A stretch of 44,118 bases of DNA from Pseudogymnoascus verrucosus (Eukaryota). Made by a program: the position numbers and the translations under genes. The notes beneath the pieces were generated by a model, which was given only the letters and a program-made list of their open reading frames with translations, was not told where the DNA came from and did no database searches. The stretch lies in assembly GCA_001662655.1 (NCBI GenBank), contig KV460246.1. One strand, given 5' to 3'. Below, piece by piece: positions 20,729-32,738 of this stretch. Within the stretch, counting starts at the first letter, position 1. Each line of letters opens with the position of its first letter.

Positions 20729-22126
20729 TCACCCCCCAACCCTCCCCCCCTTCACAACCCCTCCACTCACCCCCCCCTCCCCCGTCATCCATCCTGGCAT
20801 CTTCTCTCCCTCCACAACCCCTCGTTCCACCAACCCCCTAACCCCCTTAAACACATCACTCCCCCTGAACACAACCCTAACACTCGGGCACCATCCCCCT
20901 TCTTTCTCCCCAGGGAACGGGTCTTCAATCCTCACATCCACCAATTCAAGCGGGGCACTGGGCACATCCCCGAACCGCGCCTGGGCAATGAGACGCCGGC
21001 GTTTCGCTGTTTCCGCACCAGGATCAAGGGGGCGCTTCATTCCCTTCCCTCTCCCTTCGGGCACCTCGTGTAGCAGATCCACCTCCTCCCCTTCCTCCTC
21101 TTTCCCGTCCTTCTCCCCTCCTCCGACGAGTTTACCCACTTCCCCAGCAACATTCCTATTCGTCCCCCCCACAACCTCGCGAAGCACAGGCGCCACAGAT
21201 TCCAACGGCGTATCCCCCGCTTTCCTCCCACTAAGCGCATACCCCCCCCATCCACCCTGCGCCTTCCCCGTCCTTCCCCCGCCACGAAGCGCGATCATCG
21301 CTTCGAGACTGCGGGCGGAGAGGTTGGTGGATGCTAACGTGTAGCGTGCTCGCGGCCGCGAGAGGGCGGTGGGGAGACATGCTATGAGTGTCCTCCTAAG
21401 ATCGCGGGCCGTGTTTTCATTTGCCGTGGTGGCTGTGCCAGTAGTCGGGGGTGATGATGCGGCGGAGAGGAAGATATGCGGACTTGCGTCTGGGAAGGCG
21501 ACGTAGACTACCTTTGCGCCTGAGAGGGAGGGGGTCGTGGCATATGGTGTGTCGAGGAGCATGACTCTTAATAGTAGGAGTGGGAGTCCGGGGGGTCGGT
21601 CGAGGTTATAATGCGCTTTGATATCTGGCGGGAGGGCGCGCTGTAGTGCTTTGAGGAAGGTGGGTGGGTGGAAGCGCGGGATTGGAGGCGCGGAGGGGTG
21701 GGAGGGTGTGAGTGCATAGGCGGACCATTTCTGCGATGTTGGGTGCGTTTGTAGGATCAGCGTGTCGGCCATGGCGAGTTGGTAGAGTGTGAGGCCATGA
21801 CGATAGTCTCCTGTTAAGAGGCGATCGAGTAAGGCGGTGCGAGTGCCGCGCGTGGATTGGAGGTCGGTATAGAATTCGCGCAAATCCTCCAAGCTGGAAT
21901 GAGGAGGGTAGAAGTCCCCAGCGTGTAGGTCATCGGAGGAGTCATCGGCGGAGGCGAGGTAGGGCGCGCTAAGGGGCTGGTTGCGGTCGTCAAGCCAGTC
22001 GAGGGTTAGGGAGATGAGGGCGGGGCGGGAGAGTTTGGAGAGGATGCGGGGGATGGCGGGGTCGGTGGAGGGGATGAGGAGGGAGGGGGAGAGGGCGGCG
22101 GAGGTGGGGACGGAGAGGGGTGGCAT
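20729..22126 (-). CDS. CHL4: Kinetochore protein CHL4/Mis15/CENP-N, intronless, 465 aa
   Basis: LSKLSR..LISLTLDWLD, DR.L.GDYRHGLTLYQLAMAD, RFHPPTFL..LQ..LPPDIKAHY, YVAFPD.SP and F.GSDVF.GVR.LVE.GVV....MPGWMTGE.GVS.G.V motifs. Confidence 0.88.
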   Translation of the reverse strand: MPPLSVPTSAALSPSLLIPSTDPAIPRILSKLSRPALISLTLDWLDDRNQPLSAPYLASADDSSDDLHAGDFYPPHSSLEDLREFYTDLQSTRGTRTALLDRLLTGDYRHGLTLYQLAMADTLILQTHPTSQKWSAYALTPSHPSAPPIPRFHPPTFLKALQRALPPDIKAHYNLDRPPGLPLLLLRVMLLDTPYATTPSLSGAKVVYVAFPDASPHIFLSAASSPPTTGTATTANENTARDLRRTLIACLPTALSRPRARYTLASTNLSARSLEAMIALRGGGRTGKAQGGWGGYALSGRKAGDTPLESVAPVLREVVGGTNRNVAGEVGKLVGGGEKDGKEEEGEEVDLLHEVPEGRGKGMKRPLDPGAETAKRRRLIAQARFGDVPSAPLELVDVRIEDPFPGEKEGGWCPSVRVVFRGSDVFKGVRGLVERGVVEGEKMPGWMTGEGGVSGGVVKGGRVGG

Positions 22127-22357
22127 TGTCGGCTTTGGGTGTGGAGTTTGTGTGGTTATTGTGGTGGCATTGGCGGGTTGTGATTGCCCCTCGGTGGTGG
22201 TGTTGATGTTGTGTTTCTCTGGGGAATTGGTTGATGGGTTTTGCTCCTGAGAGCTGGTTGTTGAATAATTCGCTTGTCACGAGTATGAGAACAGCGTGTT
22301 CTAGGTGGTGGTGCCGTGGCTCACCCGTGGATCACCTCGTTGGCATATTGTCGCGGT

Positions 22358-22831: not shown

Positions 22832-24281
22832 ATGGCAACTCGCACCCTGGAGGCTAGCTTCAAGGGTATGTCTGTCAAAGATCAGCATGACTCTAGTGAT
22901 GAAAAGACGGTGTATCCTCAAGACTAAAGTTTGTACCAAAGCTCACTCTATAATATAAACAAACATATTCTAATATAGTTAGGTTGCAGCCTCCTTAAAC
23001 TCCCAATTATCGAGGAACTCAGCTAGCGATCAGAACGGGTCTAGTTATGGAAAGAAATCATATTCCAAGTCCATAGTTTGTTTACCAACTTTCTCTATGG
23101 AGACATACTCTATTATGATTAGACCGTGACTTCTGCGGCCATGCGATTGTCGAAAGCATCACTTACTAATCACTCGAACCTTCGCAAGGTTGCCTTAGAG
23201 AATCAAAGCACTATGTCAAAGACTACGGCAGTCCCTTCGCAAGTCGTGCAACTGTCAAGCTCGAGCGAGTCGGTTGTGTCCGAACCACCACCGCAAGAAG
23301 CCGCTGCCGAATCATCAGAAGGGTCACAAAAATCACGGCCCTCCACAATGCAAAAACAGCCTAATGCCCCGAAACAATTCCATCTCGGCATGTTCGAAAT
23401 TGGCCGCCCTTTAGGAAAAGGGAAATTCGGACACGTGTATTTAGTGAGGGAACGGAGCAGTGGATTCATCTGTGCTCTCAAGGTTATGCATAAAGATGAA
23501 ATCAAATCAAACGGTGTTGAGAAGCAGGTCCAAAGAGAAGTTGAAATCCAGTGTAATCTTCGGCATCCAAATATCCTTCAGCTTTACGGCCATATCCACG
23601 ACAGCAAGCGAATATTCTTGATTTTAGAACTTGCTAAAAAGGGAGAGTTGTATAAGCATCTTCGTCGCGAGCGCCGGTTCCCAGAATGGCAGGCTGCGGC
23701 GTACATTGCCCAGATGGCCTCGGCGCTAAAGTTCTTACACAGGAAGCATGTAATACATCGAGACATCAAGCCGGAAAACATCCTGGTCGGTGTCCATGGT
23801 GAGCTTAAGATTGCTGATTTTGGATGGAGTGTGCATGCGCCTTCTAACCGACGTAAAACAATGTGTGGAACTATGGACTACCTTGCGCCAGAGATAGTCA
23901 ACCATTACACCTACAATACAGCCGTCGACTTATGGAGTTTGGGGGTCTTAATGTATGAACTTTTGGTAGGGGAAGCGCCATTTGAGGATACGCCAGTCCT
24001 CACATACAAAAGAATAGTTCGTTGTGAAATGACAGTGCCGAGTTTTGTGTCTCCGGAAGCTAAAGATCTAATTAATAATGTAGGTCAATATTCTATGCGA
24101 TCAGCGTTCAACGTTAATATTATAGCTTCTGGTTGTCAACCCAGAGAAGCGTATGCCACTTGAGGACGTTCAAAAGCACCCGTGGATCATCAAGCACTGC
24201 AAGAAGGGAGAATTCGATAATGTAAAGGAGTTGAGATTAAGCAAACAACAACGCAAGTCGGTGCTTGATAGCGCGAAATGA
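22832..24281 (+). CDS. IPL1: Aurora kinase (Ipl1/Ark1 family). Exons about 22832-22928(?), 22983-23075, 23123-24079, 24126-24281; exon 1 has a frame problem
   Basis: [65 protein letters not shown] and HPWI..H motifs. The N-terminus [14 protein letters not shown] resembles filamentous-fungal Aurora kinases. Confidence 0.9.
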
Positions 24282-25325
24282 ATACGCTACTTCACAGGGT
24301 GCTGAACGGACCGCAGGATATGAAGCCTTTCACAAGTAGCACCATGAGGAAGGCGGATGGCACCCATGCATCATATAGAAGTGCTGGCAGTTTGTAAAAT
24401 ATCATCCTTCGCCTTATACAGCATGGTGAACAATAAGAGCTGAGTATGCATGACTTAGGCCATACAAATATAAATCGCACTAAAATAGATAGCAATTAAT
24501 CCAACGCCGTTTAATATTCACGGGGACGTTAACTTGATACTCACGGTCAGCTCTAAAATCCATGCTATAAAAGCCATATCTAGCCGGTCTAGGAATATAG
24601 ATTTTTATTAATTTATACTTCAATTTTTCAATTATCAAACAGTTTGTAGTATTCTCAGATTTCAAGCGTTATTAAGTGGCCAACCTATTTATATTGAAAG
24701 AACGACTAAATGAGACAATAACGTGCTAAATGAGTGTACCCCAACTACTTAACTCGACAAAAGAAAAAGAAGAAAAACAGAACCGACCCCAAGATTCTGT
24801 CTATGATTGCTTCCTTATATAGCCGTCACATGGCCTCTATGCCTGTTGTGGTCGTCATCATCATCATAGCCACAGACGCAAGCAAGCTGCATCTTCTTAG
24901 CGAAGAAGATTCCCAAAGGACTCTATGAAATCACTATATTAAGGATCGACAATTGGGCTCAACTTCTTGTCTGCATCCTTTAGGAAATTGAACTCATATG
25001 GATGGAAAGTGCCAGCAGTAGCATGGGATGGTAGGCCGTCGTAGTCAGAGGAGGAGTAGGTCGGTGAGCGCCATCACGGGAAACCCCCTTTTTCGATCGA
25101 TCGATCAATCTGTCCTGTTGTGTTAAACTGAAAAATATGATCCGTGCTCTGTAAGCATAGACGGCAAATAGCCTACGGTAAAGTATCGGAAAGGGCGCTC
25201 TATGATCTCACCACGGCCACAAATGTAACCGCATCATACCCCAAAGAGGAAACGAGGCAATGCACGCACGGCCTCGGATGTACTTTAGTGGGATGCTTAA
25301 CAATCACGATCACTCAACATGGGAT

Positions 25326-25335
25326 GTCACGTGAC
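25326..25335. promoter_or_regulatory. Palindromic E-box GTCACGTGAC (Cbf1-type) upstream of metR
   Basis: Perfect 10-bp palindrome. A second CACGTG lies at 25900-25905. Cbf1 co-regulates sulfur genes in budding yeast. Confidence 0.45.
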
Positions 25336-25595
25336 GGGTTAACCCCACGAAAAAAAGAAAAGAAAGGGCAAGACAGTAAGACAGTCGAATCAAGGGAGGG
25401 AGAGAAGTAGCTAAGCCGGGTAATTACGCCGTGATAATTAATTTGGGGTGGGATTTGTGCGTATATTCCGTTTACTGATATTTCCGTTTACTTGTATCTG
25501 TATCGTGTATGTAGAGTCAGTGAGGGGTATACTGTTTTTCGTCTGAAGTAGAGTAGAAATGCGCAATAGGGTGAGGATGGCATAGTTTTATTATT

Positions 25596-25639
25596 CTCCT
25601 ATTATACTCCTCCTATTATACTCCTATTATACTCCTATT
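25596..25639 (+). repeat. Tandem minisatellite (CTCCTATTATA), 3 full copies plus a partial copy
   Basis: Copies at 25596, 25610 and 25621, partial at 25632. Confidence 0.85.
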
Positions 25640-26458
25640 CCTATAGCCGAGTTAAATACTGACGGATATTCTCTTTCCCCTACCCTTTTCCTAGGTGGCA
25701 ACGCGATTAATAGTCCCTGATTTGATAAATAACGTTCCTTGGCACCTGAGCCTCGATAAAAAGAGGGCTTTTCTATTTCCCCATTAGGATTAGCGCGCAC
25801 TCCACCGGCGCAGGTTAAGGCAGGTTATCGGCAGCCGACGCCCATCATTTTGTATTTTCGTACTGTAATACTGGTAATAAATCGTAAAATAATCACTCAC
25901 ACGTGGAAATTCCCCCCCCACGTCCCCCAAACTGCCCACCACCCACCCACTGCCAGCCACTGCCAATCCTGCCCACCACCCACCACCCACCACACATTCC
26001 CGGTCAATAATCAATCCGTACATGATCGTTCCCTCGATCCCTCGATCCCTCGAAACAAAGGAAAACCCCCAACAACAACTTCTGCCGCCACCATCACCAA
26101 CCACACTTCTATAACAAACTCGACTCTCAGAAATAGTCGACACTTACAACAACTACAATTTAATCGCCGTCAAATATCGACCCGGCGTAACCCATTGGCA
26201 AGAAGGGTGGACCGGCTTACCACATCGAGTCATAGTGCCCGCATTTCCCCCGGCCGGCTACGGAGACAAAGAGCCTTCATCGATACTAAGACCACACATC
26301 TCCAGCGTCACCTCGACTTTCCTCACCCCACAACAAAATAACCGCGAAGGCAACAGACTTCGATCCCGCGCAAGACACAGAAACAACGCAAACACCTCGA
26401 TCCCCTCTGCGGACAAACACTCGACAAACGGAGATCACCTCCGATCAACCCCTCCATC

Positions 26459-28810
26459 ATGGCGAGCAACCCATATCACGACGGCCAGCGGGGTCCAAAC
26501 GTGGCCGAGTTCATCGCGAACCTGAATGCCATCCCGTCGGCACAGGACCTGGCTGCGCAGCAGCAGCAGGACTTCAACTTCGATGACGACCTGGCCATGT
26601 TCACCAACGCCACCTTCTTCGACTTCGATATCGGACAGGACGCCGACCTCCAGCCCGCCGCGCTCGGGTTCGACGGCCAGCAGCGCGGCGGCGACGCGCA
26701 GCTGCAGAGCTCACAAGACATGGCAAAGGCGAACATGGACTTTCTACAGGGTGAGTGACGCTTATTTTACATTTTTACACGGTCTATCTGTTTTGCGCAT
26801 TGTCCTGTCGTCGCCTCTACCTCGCCGTCGCCTCGCCATATTCCACCACCACACACGACCTTTCAAAGTCTTCTGTGGTTGGGTGCTAGGTGGCGAGGCT
26901 ACAGCTACCGGAGAGTGCGAGCGCTACCCCCACGGGCCCTCTGGTGCAGCGTGCAGGCCTGTTGTGCAGCTGAGCAGGGGCGAGACCCTTACTCCTGGGC
27001 CGGCTCAGCTCCTGAGCACGGGTATTTGCCCTCTGTTGGCCCTTCCCTGAGCACCCCAGTACGGGTTTTCGCGGGTTTCCAGTGCTGGTTTTTTCCCAGC
27101 TAGCCATTTGCAATCTGGTCGATCTTTCCGCGCTGTACCCTGTCCCAGACTCTGCCCTGGCGCGGCCTTGCTTTGTTCAAGCGACGAGCGAGGATTGGGC
27201 TGTGTCGACTGAGTGGGGGGTCAGTACGGGGGGGTGGCTGGCTGGTGGGCGGGCTCTTTGTTGGTTACGAGTGCTTTTGGTATGGGGCAGATGAGTTTGT
27301 TTGCATGGGCGATGGTGTGATGGGCGGCACTATGCGACACGCTATGGCTGTTCAACCCACCAGCGCGAATCAGCAGCGCCAGTAGCGCACGTAGTGCGTA
27401 TAGTGCGAATAGCATCACCTCGCAGCGGAGTGCAAAGGGAATAGCCTGCAGATAGTTTCTGCAGGTTTCCACCTTGCGGTTTCGATAGTCAGACAGTGGA
27501 CAGCACTGCTGTACTGTACTGTGCTGTGCTGTAATTTGCTCTACTGTACTGTACTGTATTGTACTGCATTGCACTGTACTTCACTGTCTCTGTACTCTGT
27601 ACACCAGAAACCCACGACTTCCAGCCAGCGCAATCAATGTTAATCAATGACAATCAATCATCCTCGGTGCAACTCCAATGCACCTAATCTATCCGGCGTC
27701 GGGGCACTTGTCTCTTTTTATCTTTTATCAGTGAAAAGATACGAGAGACAGGCCTCGGAAAGAGACCTGGGTGGATTGCGAAGACTGGGAAGACTGGGAA
27801 TATCGGGAAGGTGTGCGAGGAAGTGACGCGCCGAAGCCGATCCTGCCACAAACAAGTCCAAAACATCCCAAAACACCCCACGACCCCCAATCTTCCTATT
27901 GCTCAATTAAGTCACCCCCCTCATTTCCGACGTGGGAGTCCCGGCAACCGTGCGATTGCGTGCTGTCGCTGCTCCTGCGGGATGCCACAGGCCCAATTAG
28001 CGTCGGTCAGCCTTAGCACGTCTTTTCACGTGATACACCATCAAATATCCCCCTCCCGAAATACCACACATCTCTTATTATGAGAAGGCGTTCTCCAGTT
28101 CTGGAGTTCCCCCTCCCCCTTCCGCCCCCCCGAAAAAGCCGTTTCCAAAAAAACCCCACGTTTGCTCCAGCCAAAGGGCTTCTCCCGTGTTGCGCCACCA
28201 TCGTGAACCTCAACCGATCGTTTTTGCTGACGATGTGATGGCTCGAGTAGGCGACTTCGCGTTCCCGGACTTCAGCTCCTTCTCGCAACAGCACCAGCAC
28301 CCCAACGACGGCTACGCCGTGAACGGGGCCCAGCACGGCAACGGCCCGCAGCAGCACCAGCAGCTGTACCCAGCATCGGGCGACTCCAGCTCGTCACCGC
28401 CCTCGGGCCTCACCAGCCCGCAAAACGGGGAGAAGCGCAAGGCCTCCGACGCCCTCCTCGACGGCAATGGCGCCTACAGCGCGGGCTTTGAGGACTCGTC
28501 CCGCGTCGCGGCCGAGGAGGACAAGCGCAGGCGCAACACGGCTGCCAGCGCGCGCTTCCGCGTCAAGAAGAAGCAGCGTGAGCAGGCGCTCGAGAAGTCG
28601 GCGAGGGAGATGAGCGATAAGGTCGCCGCGCTTGAGGGGCGCATTGGTCAGCTCGAGACGGAGAATAAGTGGCTCAAGAACTTGGTCATGGAGAAGAACG
28701 ATGATAAGGAGGATCTCGCGGCGTTGTGGAGGAAGTATAGCCAGGAGACCGCCGACAGGAAAGGTGACACGCGCAGGAAGGGTGTCGGAACATCGGAGTC
28801 GTCGGCTTAG
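26459..28810 (+). CDS. metR: bZIP sulfur-regulatory transcription factor MetR/CYS-3, 2 exons (26459-26750, 28251-28810) with a 1,500-nt intron, about 283 aa
   Basis: Exon 1 has PNVAEFIANLNAIPS...DDDLAMFTNATFFDFD. Exon 2 has G|DFAFPDFS...SRVAAEEDKRRRNTAASARFRVKKKQREQALE...LETENKWLKNLV.EK. Donor GTGAGT at 26751, branch GCTGAC at 28226, acceptor TAG at 28250, and phase 1 matches on both sides. Confidence 0.92.
27505..27602 (+). repeat. Degenerate pentanucleotide microsatellite (ACTGT/CTGTA-like) inside the metR intron
   Basis: ACTGCTGTACTGTACTGTGCTGTGCTGTA...CTACTGTACTGTACTGTATTGTACTGCATTGCACTGTACT. Confidence 0.85.
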
Positions 28811-29405
28811 GCTTGTTCGCGCCTGTGAAGCTACTCGACTGTCGATTACATAGGGGTTGTCTTCTTTTTGGGGGGCACCCCACACACGATCGAATCAAAG
28901 CAACAAACCACATTTTCTCCGAGCCGATATTTTCGAGAACGACGATGGGATTCTATCACTCGCCGTCCTTGCATACTTCGGGTTTATCTCAAATCTTGTC
29001 TATATAGTGCTTTTGTTGTTGCTGCCATGTTATGATCGTGGATTTTTTTCCTTGGGATCTATTCGTCGAGTTTGGGATTTTAGAACTTGTTTCTGGGGTG
29101 CCGGCTTGGTGGTGGATGGGGGTAGGGGTCAGGTGTTGTCATTTTTTTGGCGGGCCTGGCTTGGCTGGGGGAGGGAGGGCGGTGCATGCATGAGTGGATG
29201 AATATATGATTTTTCAAGTTATGTTCGTTGTGTTCTGTCTGTCTATATACCGTGATGTGAGATGCCTGTAACGCCTGTACTCTATATACACTCTATCGCT
29301 TGCGTCTATCCTCGCATATCCAGCCCACGGTCACCTTCATCTAAATCTATCCCTCTATCCTTCTATACCAACACCCATAACCACCCCGCCACAATCTCCA
29401 ACCCC

Positions 29406-30577
29406 CTAAACCACCTCCTCCTTGAACCCAAACATCCTCCTCGAATTCCCCCACGCCGCCTCCGCCACCTCCTCAACCCTCACCCCCTTAATCCTCGCCA
29501 CAGCCACCACAACCCGTCCAATCAAACACGGTTCATTCCTCCCCTTCACCAACGCCCCTTCGACCCACTTCTCCTTCTTAACCCACCTATACCCCGCCTC
29601 CCTCTCCAACACCTCCTTCGCTACCTCATCCTCCTTCCCCGGCCCGTCGTAACTAGGTCCTACGAACGCGGCGGATGCGTGAGTAGGTCGCATCTCGCAC
29701 CACGGGCCGTCGGTCTCGACGTGCAGCCGCTCAAGGGGGAGGGCGCGCACGACGTCTATGCCTTCGGCGGCGCGGATGCTGCAGCCGTTTATACCGACAT
29801 CCCAGCCTGCTGCGACGAGTTCTTGCATTTCTGCCACGGTGCCGGTGAAGCTGTGCACCACCCCCCTCTTGGGAAGTTTATCAGCACGCAACGTCAACTC
29901 GTGTAAGAAATCCTCGTGCGCGGCGCGGGAGTGCAGGAATAGTGGGGGGGGAGAAGGTAGAGAGGCTGCGAGGTCGAGTTGGGTGCGGAAATGGGTGAGT
30001 TGTGTCTCCTTGGGGGAGAGGGTGAGGCGGTCGTAGTCGAGGCCGATTTCCCCGATGGCGACGAAGGCTTCTTTGGGGGCTGAGAGGAACAACTCGCGCA
30101 GTTCGTCGAGGAGACCCTGCGGACCAAGGGGGTGCGTGTCGAAGGCCTGCGTGGAGCAGGGGTGCACACCGATTGTGCAGGAGAGGAGGGTGGGATGCTC
30201 TGCACATAAGTCCAGCGCGGCGTGCGAGGTGGGGAGGTCAGAGCCGGTGAGGAGGAGGTGTGTGAGGCCGGCGTCGCGGGCGCGTGAGAGGACGGCGGGG
30301 AGGTCAGGGGCGTGCCGCGGGGTGCCGTGGTGGATGCCGTTGTAGACGGGGTCGGTGAGGTTTATTCCGATCTTGGGAAGTGTTAGAATTGGGTTTTGTG
30401 GGGAGGGGGGGAGGGGCATACGTCGATGAAGCGGGGTTTGTAGGGGGTGGAGGGCGGGGGTGGGGGGGTGGAGGAGGTCATTGTTGTGAGTGTCCGGAAG
30501 GCGGAGGGGATTGAAGGTTTTTGGTGATAGAGAGGGCGCGTGGGGAAGCGCGAGAGGGTGCGCAGGGTGATGCGCAT
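29406..30577 (-). CDS. tatD: TatD family deoxyribonuclease, 2 exons (30577-30422, 30371-29406), about 373 aa; second in-frame ATG at 30481
   Basis: RFID|IGINLTDP, TIGVHPC, AIGEIGLDYDRL, LFLHSRAAH, GVVHSFTG, ETDGPWCE and KGRNEP motifs. Intron 30421-30372 is GTATGC...CTAAC...AAG. Confidence 0.95.
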
Positions 30578-30955
30578 AAGGATAAGTGAGTGATCTTGAA
30601 ATTATTCCCCGGGTATAAACACAACGTTCTCGAACATATAAAAAGCCCGGCCCACCTAAAGGCGTGCCTGGGCGCGGAAGCGGATCATTACCTCCTCCGA
30701 ATCCTTATCCGCAGGGTCCTATGGATCGGTGAATCGCGGGCCCAGGAAAAAAAGTGTTGAGGGGTGGCGCGGCCGGTGTCGGGAAGTGCCGAGGCGCCGC
30801 GACGGCGAGGACGGATTAAATTTCTTGTATCGGCCGCGCATGTGGACGAGTCGTGTCGCTATTGACGAGAGAACAAAAACCAACCGGGCGGCACTTTTGT
30901 GTGATTTTTTTTCCTCTATGGAAGGGCGATTTGTGGCCGGTTAACGATTGATAGG

Positions 30956-32738
30956 ATGAAAGGGCTTAATTTTGCGCAGGGCTTTGCCAGGGCGCCCTGG
31001 ACGTGTCGCGCTTGCACGAGGCAGATAAGACAGCCGCTGCTGAGGGCGACGGGGAGGAAGGGTTATGCGACGGCTGCGCCGACGGCGAGGAGGGGGTTGA
31101 GTACGGGGACTATTCTGGTTACGGCGACGGTGGGGTCGGCGATTATTACGGCGGCGGTGTATCCGAATGATGTGAAGCATGCGTACCAGGCGTGTCAGAG
31201 GTCGGGGAGGGTGGTGGTTGCGCTGGCGAAGTGTATTAATGAGTAGGTACTCCAATGGAAGATGGGATGGGGGGATGAGAAGATGCTAACCTGGGCATAG
31301 TTATCGCGTTACCCTCAACCACAACGAGAAGACACCTGAGGACGAGGATGAGAATACAAAGAGGCTGAAGGCTTGCCACCAGCGATGCGCCAGTCGCACA
31401 CTCAGGGTGCTGGAGCAGAATGGAAGCATATTTATCAAGTTGGGACAGCATTTGTCGTCCATGAACTACCTCTTACCCGAGGAATACTGCAAGACGATGC
31501 TGGTTCTCCAAGACAGGTGTCCCGTCTCATCTTACGAATCGATAGAGGAGATGTACCTCCACGATACAGGCGGAAAACTTCTCGACTACTTCTCCGAATT
31601 CTCGCCTGAGCCCATCGGCGCTGCGTCTCTCGCGCAGGTGCATCTGGCTACCATAAGAGAGACGGGACAAAAGGTCGCAGTCAAGATGCAACACCCGCAC
31701 CTGGCTCAATGGGCAAATCTCGACATGAAGCTCACCGCCTACACCTTCTCCGCGCTGAAGTACTTCTTCCCCGAATACGACCTCGAGTGGCTCTCAAGCG
31801 AAATGGAGGTCTCCCTCCCCCAAGAACTCGACTTCAAGCTCGAAGGCCAAAACGCCCTCCGCACAAAAGAATACTTCTCCCACATCCCCTCTCTACCTCT
31901 CCTCATCCCCGACGTCCTCTGGGCCAAAGACCGCATCCTAGTAATGGAGAACATGTCCGGTGCCCGCCCCGACGACCTCGCCTACCTCGACGCCCACGGC
32001 ATCGACCGTGATGAGGTCTCAGCCGCGCTGGCGCGCATCTTCAATGAAATGATCTTCGGCACTAACGCGCCCCTACACTGCGACCCGCATGGCGGCAATC
32101 TTGCTGTGCGCCCGAGCACACGCCGCGGCGGACCGAACTTTGAAATCATCCTCTACGACCACGGTCTGTACCGCGACATCCCACAGAATCTACGCCGCGC
32201 GTATGCCAAGCTGTGGCTCGCGATCCTAGACGCCGACGAGGCGGAGATGCGGCGCTGGTCGCACGAGGTGGCTGGCGTGACCGATGACGATTTTCAGCTC
32301 TTCGCGTCTGCGATCACCGGCCGTGACTACCGCGCCGTCGGCACAGGGGTAGCGTCCGCGGTGCGCACGGCCGAGGAGAAGCGCGAGATCGGGGATCAGT
32401 TGGCGGAAGGGATGCTAGCGCAGCTGGTGCAGATGTTGGGGAAGGTTCCGCCGATTATCCTCTTAATTCTAAAGACGAATGATTTGACGAGGAGCTTGGA
32501 TGAGGGGTTGCAGACCAGACAGGGGCCGGTGAGGACGTTTCTTATACTGGCGAGGTATTGTGCGAGGACGGTGTGGGAGGAGCAGGTGGAGCAGATTAGG
32601 GAGGCGGGGAGCTTGTTGAGGCCGAGGAATTTGGTGAGGCTTTTGGGGGCTTGGTGGGGGTATTTGAGGGTGGAGATGAAGTTGGAGGTGTTTGAGAGGT
32701 GGTTGGGTGTGAAGAGGGTGCTGGGCCTCTCGCTGTGA
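30956..32738 (+). CDS. ABC1/UbiB atypical kinase (ADCK1/Mcp2-like), likely mitochondrial, 2 exons (intron 31243-31300), about 574 aa
   Basis: Arg-rich presequence. NGSIFIKLGQH, LQDRCP, PIGAASLAQVH, VAVKMQHP, ELDF..EG.N, HCDPHGGN and YDHGLY motifs. Confidence 0.93.

Follow-up and report, generated by a model that had tools for sequence, protein, structure and literature searches.

A 44,118-nt stretch of the Pseudogymnoascus verrucosus genome (contig KV460246.1 of assembly GCA_001662655.1; hereafter the window) carries an orthologue of metR/cys-3, the two coding exons of which are separated by a 1,500-nt intron (26751..28250, plus strand). Our main finding is that the last ~400 nt of this intron carry what is, by comparison with related sequences, a conserved regulatory unit, and that this unit probably acts as a second, MetR-responsive promoter (P2), from which a short isoform consisting of the bZIP part of the protein would be produced. 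Virulence in several fungal pathogens of plants and humans requires MetR/CYS-3, the master activator of sulfur metabolism, which, to our knowledge, has been treated as one protein expressed from one promoter. A preliminary description of the window had noted the length of the intron and had offered splicing control, an internal promoter, or a non-coding RNA (ncRNA) as possible reasons for it. The comparative data presented here favor the second of these options.

Several observations support the gene model. The nearest named proteins belong to Pseudogymnoascus and are 97-98% identical across exon 2; named cys-3/MetR proteins are among the protein matches, and the ortholog tree includes groups with named orthologues. 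Exon 1 (26459..26750, plus strand; 97 codons and 1 nt) encodes the acidic/aromatic conserved N-terminal block of the long isoform and matches no Pfam family. Exon 2 (28251..28810, plus strand) encodes a C-terminal bZIP domain with the MetR/CYS-3 basic region (Pfam bZIP_2, 48.5 bits against a cut-off of 22.3). The phase-1 intron, which has a canonical GTGAGT donor, a GCTGAC branch site (28226..28231, plus strand), and a TAG acceptor, thus sets the conserved block apart from the bZIP exon, as in the MetR/CYS-3 family and as previously proposed for this gene. The spliced exons encode 283 aa with a single terminal stop, and exon 1 read through unspliced encounters a stop two codons inside the intron. 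The GT..AG skip of 1,500 nt is exact in contigs of 3 of 4 public runs (X1, X7, and X6, from three studies), in agreement with the originally proposed boundaries; the RNA nature of these runs is presumed rather than on record. Contigs of the fourth run (X19) cover the whole stretch, all 30 bins of it, without the skip. Introns of A. nidulans have a median length of 59 nt, 95% of them falling within 46-228 nt (PMC4046813), which makes an intron of 1,500 nt an outlier.

For comparison, at least 208 relatives were confirmed in a scan of metagenome contigs, and the best 80 were kept, so that the sample is biased to close relatives. We dropped 29 of these 80 loci: 9 without exon 1, 3 apparently intronless, and 17 with a single open frame, which were treated as spliced transcripts, some of which may be intronless genes. 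The 51 remaining loci and the window form 36 groups at <85% exon-2 identity. Intron length ranges from 53 to 1,500 nt, with the window intron the longest and the next at 871 nt. Introns of at least 330 nt are present in 19 groups, and shorter ones in 17. The long introns occur in four separate parts of the tree (from which L028 was omitted): a Leotiomycete clade, a Sordariomycete clade, a third clade, which we guess to be Pleosporales, and locus L034. In three loci (L064, L077, and L078), the intron has apparently been lost, with the frame open from the N-terminal block to the bZIP.

The first line of evidence for P2 is a shared regulatory motif. An unguided Gibbs search identified one 20-nt motif in 19/19 long introns, invariably on the plus strand and at a promoter-like distance of 108-289 nt before the acceptor, with an information content of 21.2 compared with 13.3-13.7 in three shuffled sets, while the 17 shorter introns score no higher than 6.0. 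The motif consists of a 10-nt bZIP-type site, often followed after 1 base by a TCACGTGA-like E-box. The window copy (28014..28033, plus strand), which was excluded from training, scores 18.1 bits, with 0 equal matches in a 140-kb control from the same genome. It comprises a degenerate MetR 10-mer (28015-28024), 1 nt, and a TCACGTGA E-box (28026-28033), at the place and on the strand observed in orthologues. The independent check used published motifs only, namely ATGRYRYCAT and ATBRCGCCAT(C) from N. crassa (PMC8550094) and GAKCACGCMAT from F. graminearum chromatin immunoprecipitation sequencing (ChIP-seq; PMC10790779). An exact published 10-nt site is present in 14/19 long introns (0.31 expected), in 0/17 shorter introns, and in 0/13 exon-1 upstream regions of long-intron loci. 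In the window, AGCACGCAAT (27955..27964, minus strand) is the sole exact match to the 10-nt core in 44 kb (0.37 expected) and the sole place that differs from the 11-nt F. graminearum motif at no more than 1 position; a perfect ATGRYRYCAT or ATBRCGCCATC is absent from the window, as are published MetR sites from the region upstream of its exon 1.

Two further elements accompany the composite site. An ACCCCRC motif (27875..27881, plus strand in the window), which agrees with the CreA consensus, lies no more than 250 nt upstream of the composite in 11/19 long introns (0.06 expected per 250 nt). A CCAAT box (27887..27891, plus strand, with a second copy at 27993) is found upstream of the composite, on either strand, in 15/19, a weak signal given 0.54 expected per 250 nt. 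The earlier characterization of the 3' half as promoter-like is thus borne out by the conservation of promoter-type elements in orthologues. In the intron of L046, a ~115-nt tandem duplication, either real or an assembly artefact, repeats the part containing CCAAT and ACCCCRC.

The region upstream of exon 1 has features of its own. It contains a perfect GTCACGTGAC palindrome (25326-25335) and a second CACGTG (25900-25905), and the first promoter (P1) may, judging by these sites, be driven through E-boxes and not autoregulated. Contig cover of exon 1 begins at about 26066-26087 in the presumed RNA; such starts would give the gene a 5' leader (within 26025-26458) of at least 370 nt, and no ATG occurs from 26022 to the start codon. 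Loci L023 and L035, which belong to one clade and have introns of 57-60 nt, carry an exact MetR site upstream of exon 1 instead, as if, in this one clade, autoregulation had shifted to the first promoter.

The second line of evidence is a potential start codon at the 3' end of the intron. An open in-frame ATG no more than 40 nt from the acceptor is present in 19/19 groups with introns of at least 330 nt and in 1/17 groups with shorter introns (19/22 vs 1/14 with the cut at 200 nt, Fisher p 3e-6), against a background of 0.16 per frame in random 38-nt intron windows. The distance of the ATG from the acceptor depends on the clade (-7, -10, -13, -25, -31, or -34), and the ATG may lie on either side of the branch site; the frame is always kept, and a purine occupies position -3 in 17/19 long-intron groups. 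In the window, the ATG at 28238 (-13 from the acceptor, with a purine at -3 and G at +4) opens a predicted 190-aa reading frame (28238..28810, plus strand), composed of 4 intron-encoded codons followed by exon 2. The lone exception among short introns is L072, in which a 64-nt intron has an in-frame ATG at -7 and no motif. In 65/76 and 53/57 cases, database calls that consist of exon 2 only start with a Met no more than 9 residues from where exon 2 begins, and they share a conserved short peptide. By construction, these calls are in frame, and GTG or TTG starts may be masked in them; the weight of this argument therefore rests on the DNA count. Together with the conserved MetR/CYS-3 sites, the in-frame ATG lends comparative support to the internal-promoter option of the preliminary description.

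On this basis, we propose the following mechanism. P1, located upstream of exon 1, would give rise to the 283-aa MetR through splicing, which is itself observed. P2 would occupy the last ~400 nt of the intron, with its MetR/CYS-3 sites, one of them at a fixed spacing from an E-box, and with CCAAT and ACCCCRC upstream. Its transcript would be read from the ATG at 28238 to yield the 190-aa protein, which would keep the bZIP and drop the exon-1 block. Under sulfur shortage, long MetR made from P1 would be stabilized and would bind P2; either by itself or in a pair with the long form, the short isoform would then serve as an activating amplifier, accounting for the known autoregulation. Given P2, we put the chance that the short isoform amplifies the response, as opposed to braking it or being a passive partner, at about even. 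The intron would stay long because P2 must fit inside. This modifies the earlier suggestion that the intron is kept long for regulation, which agrees with the conservation of the last ~400 nt and not with the first ~1.1 kb, which is probably mostly filler.

The cys-3 gene of Neurospora crassa (NCU03536), an orthologue which, like the window gene, has a first exon of ~300 nt and a long first intron, provides a relevant comparison. Its protein cluster holds the 333-aa RefSeq entry XP_956815.2 and the 236-aa Swiss-Prot entry P22697, which are alike from the exon-2 junction on (233/234 aligned residues identical); before that junction, P22697 has 3 N-terminal residues of its own. Since the first exon is 301 nt long (PMC8550094), these residues place the P22697 ATG 10 nt inside the intron, at the same -10 position as in the Sordariomycete loci L030, L032, and L062, compared with -13 in the window. 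With its start inside the intron, the curated CYS-3 corresponds to the predicted short form. Nowhere in the literature searched are P22697 and XP_956815.2 treated as isoforms of a two-promoter gene.

Published Neurospora experiments bear on the same point. In a mutant from which exon 1, 447 nt upstream of it, and part of the intron have been removed, the rest of the gene is still transcribed, with cys-3 at 70-79 FPKM (fragments for each kilobase and million reads), compared with 59-66 in the wild type on sulfate and 137-162 in the starved wild type; the remaining gene is not induced, and the mutant is a functional null (PMC8550094). The mutant transcript fits a second promoter primed by the long form and also read-through. 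CYS-3 is described as activating itself and is presumed to be degraded via an SCF complex when sulfur is plentiful. Unlike older footprinting, sequencing after DNA affinity purification (DAP-seq) detected no CYS-3 site in the promoter of cys-3, and NCU03536 is not listed in the DAP-seq table (PMC8550094). The DAP-seq filter retained solely peaks upstream of the annotated start codon (PMC8550094); an intronic cys-3 site would therefore presumably be lost.

If P2 exists, a self-activated intronic promoter would explain the length of the intron, the 236-aa and 333-aa database entries for Neurospora CYS-3, and the DAP-seq miss at the cys-3 'promoter' despite the older footprinting. It would also mean that different mixtures of isoforms underlie the results of complementation with cDNA, of tagging at the C terminus, and of partial knock-outs.

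Two alternative explanations accept the conserved elements and differ in what these elements do. The sites could form an intronic enhancer of P1, with no second transcript and with the ATG as a relic or a by-product of the branch site. Consistent with this, the sites are conserved in the introns whereas exon-1 promoters are without them, out-of-frame upstream ATGs are frequent around the branch site, and no short transcript is seen in contigs, although contigs are uninformative on starts. Nevertheless, we consider an enhancer quite improbable: the frame and the -3 purine of the ATG are held across clades at differing distances and on either side of the branch site, the ATG is missing where the sites are, the motif keeps its strand and promoter-like distance in all 19 long introns, and the Neurospora exon-1 deletion still transcribes exon 2 (PMC8550094). 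The other alternative shares the anatomy of our proposal and concerns the mode of action alone, to which our estimate likewise applies: the short bZIP isoform from P2 might be a brake, which would exert negative feedback by competing for sites or forming weak heterodimers. The acidic/aromatic conserved block sits in exon 1, so that the short form is without it; yeast Met28-like short bZIP proteins have no N-terminal activation domains (PMC11502921); and the Neurospora mutant that retains exon 2 is null (PMC8550094). We regard a brake as unlikely, given that the curated entry represents the short form of CYS-3, a protein presented in the literature as a self-activating activator, that exon 2 opens with a conserved acidic/aromatic motif of its own, and that C. 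parapsilosis Met28 by itself sustains methionine synthesis (PMC11502921).

The other two alternatives concern the intron as a whole. Regulation could be RNA-based, with a structured element or ncRNA setting splicing or retention according to sulfur status. Three hairpins in the intron beat shuffled sequence (z -3.6 to -4.6), while in orthologous introns just 1/129 windows reaches z <= -4, and the frame of unspliced exon 1 stops two codons into the intron. This explanation is, in our opinion, highly improbable. An Rfam search of 25000-29500 gave 3 weak matches, all far below threshold, the best of them (24.9 bits against a threshold of 110) on the microsatellite described below; for the strongest hairpin, the better fold is that of the non-coding strand; apart from the branch/ATG end, the intron showed no similarity to other introns; hairpins sought in the introns of the other 35 groups could not be aligned in any; and the joint is spliced in three studies. 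The splicing-control and ncRNA options of the preliminary description accordingly find no support. The whole intron could also be neutral sequence enlarged by repeats and insertions, with its motifs due to chance or inheritance. Intron length spans 53-1,500 nt, the intron is apparently absent from 3 loci, its microsatellite type is common in the genome, and for the first ~1.1 kb this explanation probably holds. For the entire intron we give it the least credence, since exact published sites occur in 14/19 long introns against 0.31 expected, and the in-frame ATG in 19/19, among introns that are otherwise unalignable.

A number of points weigh against a second promoter or against the role assigned to its product. 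In P. verrucosus itself, the intronic start and the short protein are predictions. The 10-mer of the window composite is degenerate, reading GTCTT and breaking the RYMAT core. Among the orthologues, 8 intron ends were set by hand after inspection of the DNA, the 330-nt cut was picked after the data had been inspected, and the 19 long-intron groups fall in about 4 clades, so that the p-value overstates their independence. In 14/19 groups, the stretch from the motif to the in-frame ATG contains out-of-frame ATGs, and these, including the start-stop at 28233 described below, could dampen translation of the short isoform. Aspergillus MetR exon-2-only calls start within exon 2 and not in the intron; the arrangement is therefore not universal among long-intron metR genes. 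With regard to Neurospora, P22697 may represent an early gene model from which exon 1 was missing, the residual RNA of the mutant could stem from read-through that starts either in the cassette or at P1, and the null phenotype implies that a basal level of the short form is insufficient. As for the amplifier role, it leans on background knowledge and on one 1992 study by Paietta, which reportedly found CYS3 production to be sufficient for sulfur-gene induction and presumably used the 236-aa form.

The contigs themselves were counted neither for nor against a second start, as contigs cannot show starts or levels. In X7, contig depths are 308 for exon 1, 323 for exon 2, and 15 and 22 for two intron contigs, values from which starts and levels are unreadable. 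In X1 and X6, there is no cover at 28020-28170 among the pieces listed, with 70 more pieces beyond these, and here too contigs cannot show starts.

The out-of-frame ATGs deserve separate mention. In the window, a start-stop ATG-TGA (28233..28238, plus strand) has a stop that overlaps the short-isoform ATG, and a 52-codon upstream open reading frame from 28080 shares this stop. At the intron end of L003, the stop of an upstream reading frame likewise overlaps the short-isoform ATG. Among long-intron groups, 11/12 out-of-frame ATGs in the last 40 nt share one alternative frame; this may either reflect conserved damping of translation or follow from the branch-site consensus.

The geometry of the intronic composite is that of the Met4-Met28-Cbf1 site of S. 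cerevisiae, in which RYAAT (or RYCAT) is followed by a 2-bp spacer and CACGTG (PMC3737730). In the long introns, an RYAAT/RYCAT 5-mer is present in 14/19 groups; CACGTG 2 bp after the 5-mer position is exact in the window and 5/19 groups and has at most 1 mismatch in 12/19. As RYMAT and an exact E-box occur jointly in 4/19 groups only, and the E-box is missing in most of the third clade (presumably Pleosporales), we do not class the composite as a Met4-Met28-Cbf1 site. In yeasts, the long Met4 has as its partner Met28, which is short and consists of the bZIP part only (PMC11502921), and the long and short forms of MetR would mirror this activator-partner pair in outline. The yeast proteins, however, are encoded by two genes, and Met4 does not bind DNA, while here there is one gene and a full 10-bp bZIP site. 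In T. reesei, orthologues of the yeast regulators, CBF1 included, are weak or absent, and CACGTG sites are few (PMC4536894). It is conceivable, though we consider it doubtful, that a single metR/cys-3 gene supplies both members of the Met4/Met28 pair, the long activator from P1 and the short Met28-like partner from a MetR-induced intronic promoter with RYMAT-NN-CACGTG, in Leotiomycetes, Sordariomycetes, and two or more other lineages. If so, an unrecognized Cbf1-type partner would be implied in filamentous fungi, and the classical Neurospora CYS3 and its self-bound 'promoter' would be the short isoform and the intron.

Overlapping transcription units have a precedent in brlA of A. nidulans, the second unit of which reportedly begins within the intron of the first and has a feedback function. 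The brlA isoforms are said to differ by a short N-terminal piece, while the predicted short MetR would drop a conserved block of ~97 aa. Both brlA, with its two overlapping units alpha and beta (PMC3741515), and metR as proposed here are fungal master regulators with overlapping units, brlA being a C2H2 developmental factor. The long-intron metR genes combine conserved promoter-type elements within the intron with a conserved in-frame, putative start of a shorter protein.

Long metR introns as such are already known. As had been stated for Aspergillus in the preliminary description, the long metR intron of A. fumigatus is in print and is described as conserved (PMC3757043). Aspergillus MetR exon-2-only calls have, unlike the window gene, no intron-encoded start; in three Aspergillus MetR proteins (P0485, P0492, and P0495), a Met lies a few codons inside exon 2, a feature not kept in A. 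niger. In some aspergilli, such a Met could provide a short form without an intronic ATG. One close metR copy was found in the P. verrucosus genome, compared with metR and metZ in Aspergillus. For Aspergillus metZ, conserved motifs in the intron and perhaps a short, intron-started transcript were reportedly described by Pilsyk et al. (2015); the metZ paper may already describe part of the arrangement. The literature searched, the coverage of which leaves out the most relevant papers, contains no intronic promoter or short isoform of metR/cys-3.

The intron-trained 10-mer was also sought elsewhere in the genome. Upstream of sulfate-assimilation family genes, it occurs 8 times in 12 kb compared with 1.6-1.7 expected (P 3-5e-4), with sites in 4/6 sulfate-pathway regions; 2/6 sulfate-transporter-family regions have none, and binding itself is predicted only. 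For genes of Cys/Met pyridoxal phosphate (PLP) enzymes, sites are found in 3/7 regions. The region L097, upstream of a phosphoadenosine phosphosulfate (PAPS) reductase gene, contains one near-composite (16.4 bits), the E-box of which is exact, as well as three MetR-type 10-mers. The strict composite ANSRYGCMATNDCACGTG has 0 matches genome-wide. The pattern RYMATNNCACGTG has 104 compared with 47 for a reversed control, an excess to which enrichment of CACGTG alone may contribute, and none of the 100 places listed falls in the six sulfur-gene regions. A pattern tailored post hoc to the window site occurs at 2 places in 30 Mb; since the second is beside no evident sulfur gene, this pattern gives no support.

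The remainder of the intron differs in character from its 3' end. The first ~1.1 kb, hairpins and microsatellite included, is likely to be mostly lineage-specific filler, in which neither the 5' hairpins nor the microsatellite is likely to be more than incidental. The preliminary description divided the intron into a GC-rich and stem-rich 5' half, a central microsatellite, and the 3' half. The GC content of the 5' half does exceed that of the 3' half (0.58 vs 0.53; window 0.51), but modestly, the exons being at 0.63-0.65. No enrichment in stems was found, as mean fold z is -0.99 in the 5' half and -0.98 in the 3' half, and the 3/23 intron windows with z <= -4 comprise one in the 5' half, one entering the microsatellite, and one in the 3' half. 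The hairpins lie at 26807..26923 (an inverted repeat, z -4.6 on the plus strand and -5.9 on the minus strand), 27385..27528 (z -3.6, running into the microsatellite), and 27690..27770 (in the 3' half, window z -3.6). The microsatellite is as described, a (CTGTA)n repeat of about 17 copies at 27509..27596/27602 (Tandem Repeats Finder score 76); across the genome, this repeat type accounts for 39 overlapping matches, located at 27 places. Thus, the parts of the proposed modular layout exist, but the three modules are not conserved: the other 18 long introns (333-871 nt) share with the window intron short motifs and the branch/ATG end only. The alignment of orthologous introns that the preliminary description had suggested accordingly yields conserved blocks in the last ~400 nt and none for the hairpins or the microsatellite. 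A mobile insertion, such as a miniature inverted-repeat transposable element (MITE) or an introner, was considered and rejected, as 26760-28000 matches itself alone in the genome, in a search that skips simple repeats. Rfam, repeat, and self-similarity searches revealed no ncRNA or mobile element.

There are no sulfur genes among the genes adjoining metR. Upstream are genes for CENP-N/Chl4 (20729-22276, minus strand) and a protein kinase, Aurora-like by interpretation (23123-24281, plus strand); downstream are genes for a TatD DNase (29406-30704, minus strand) and an ABC1 kinase (31290-32738, plus strand).

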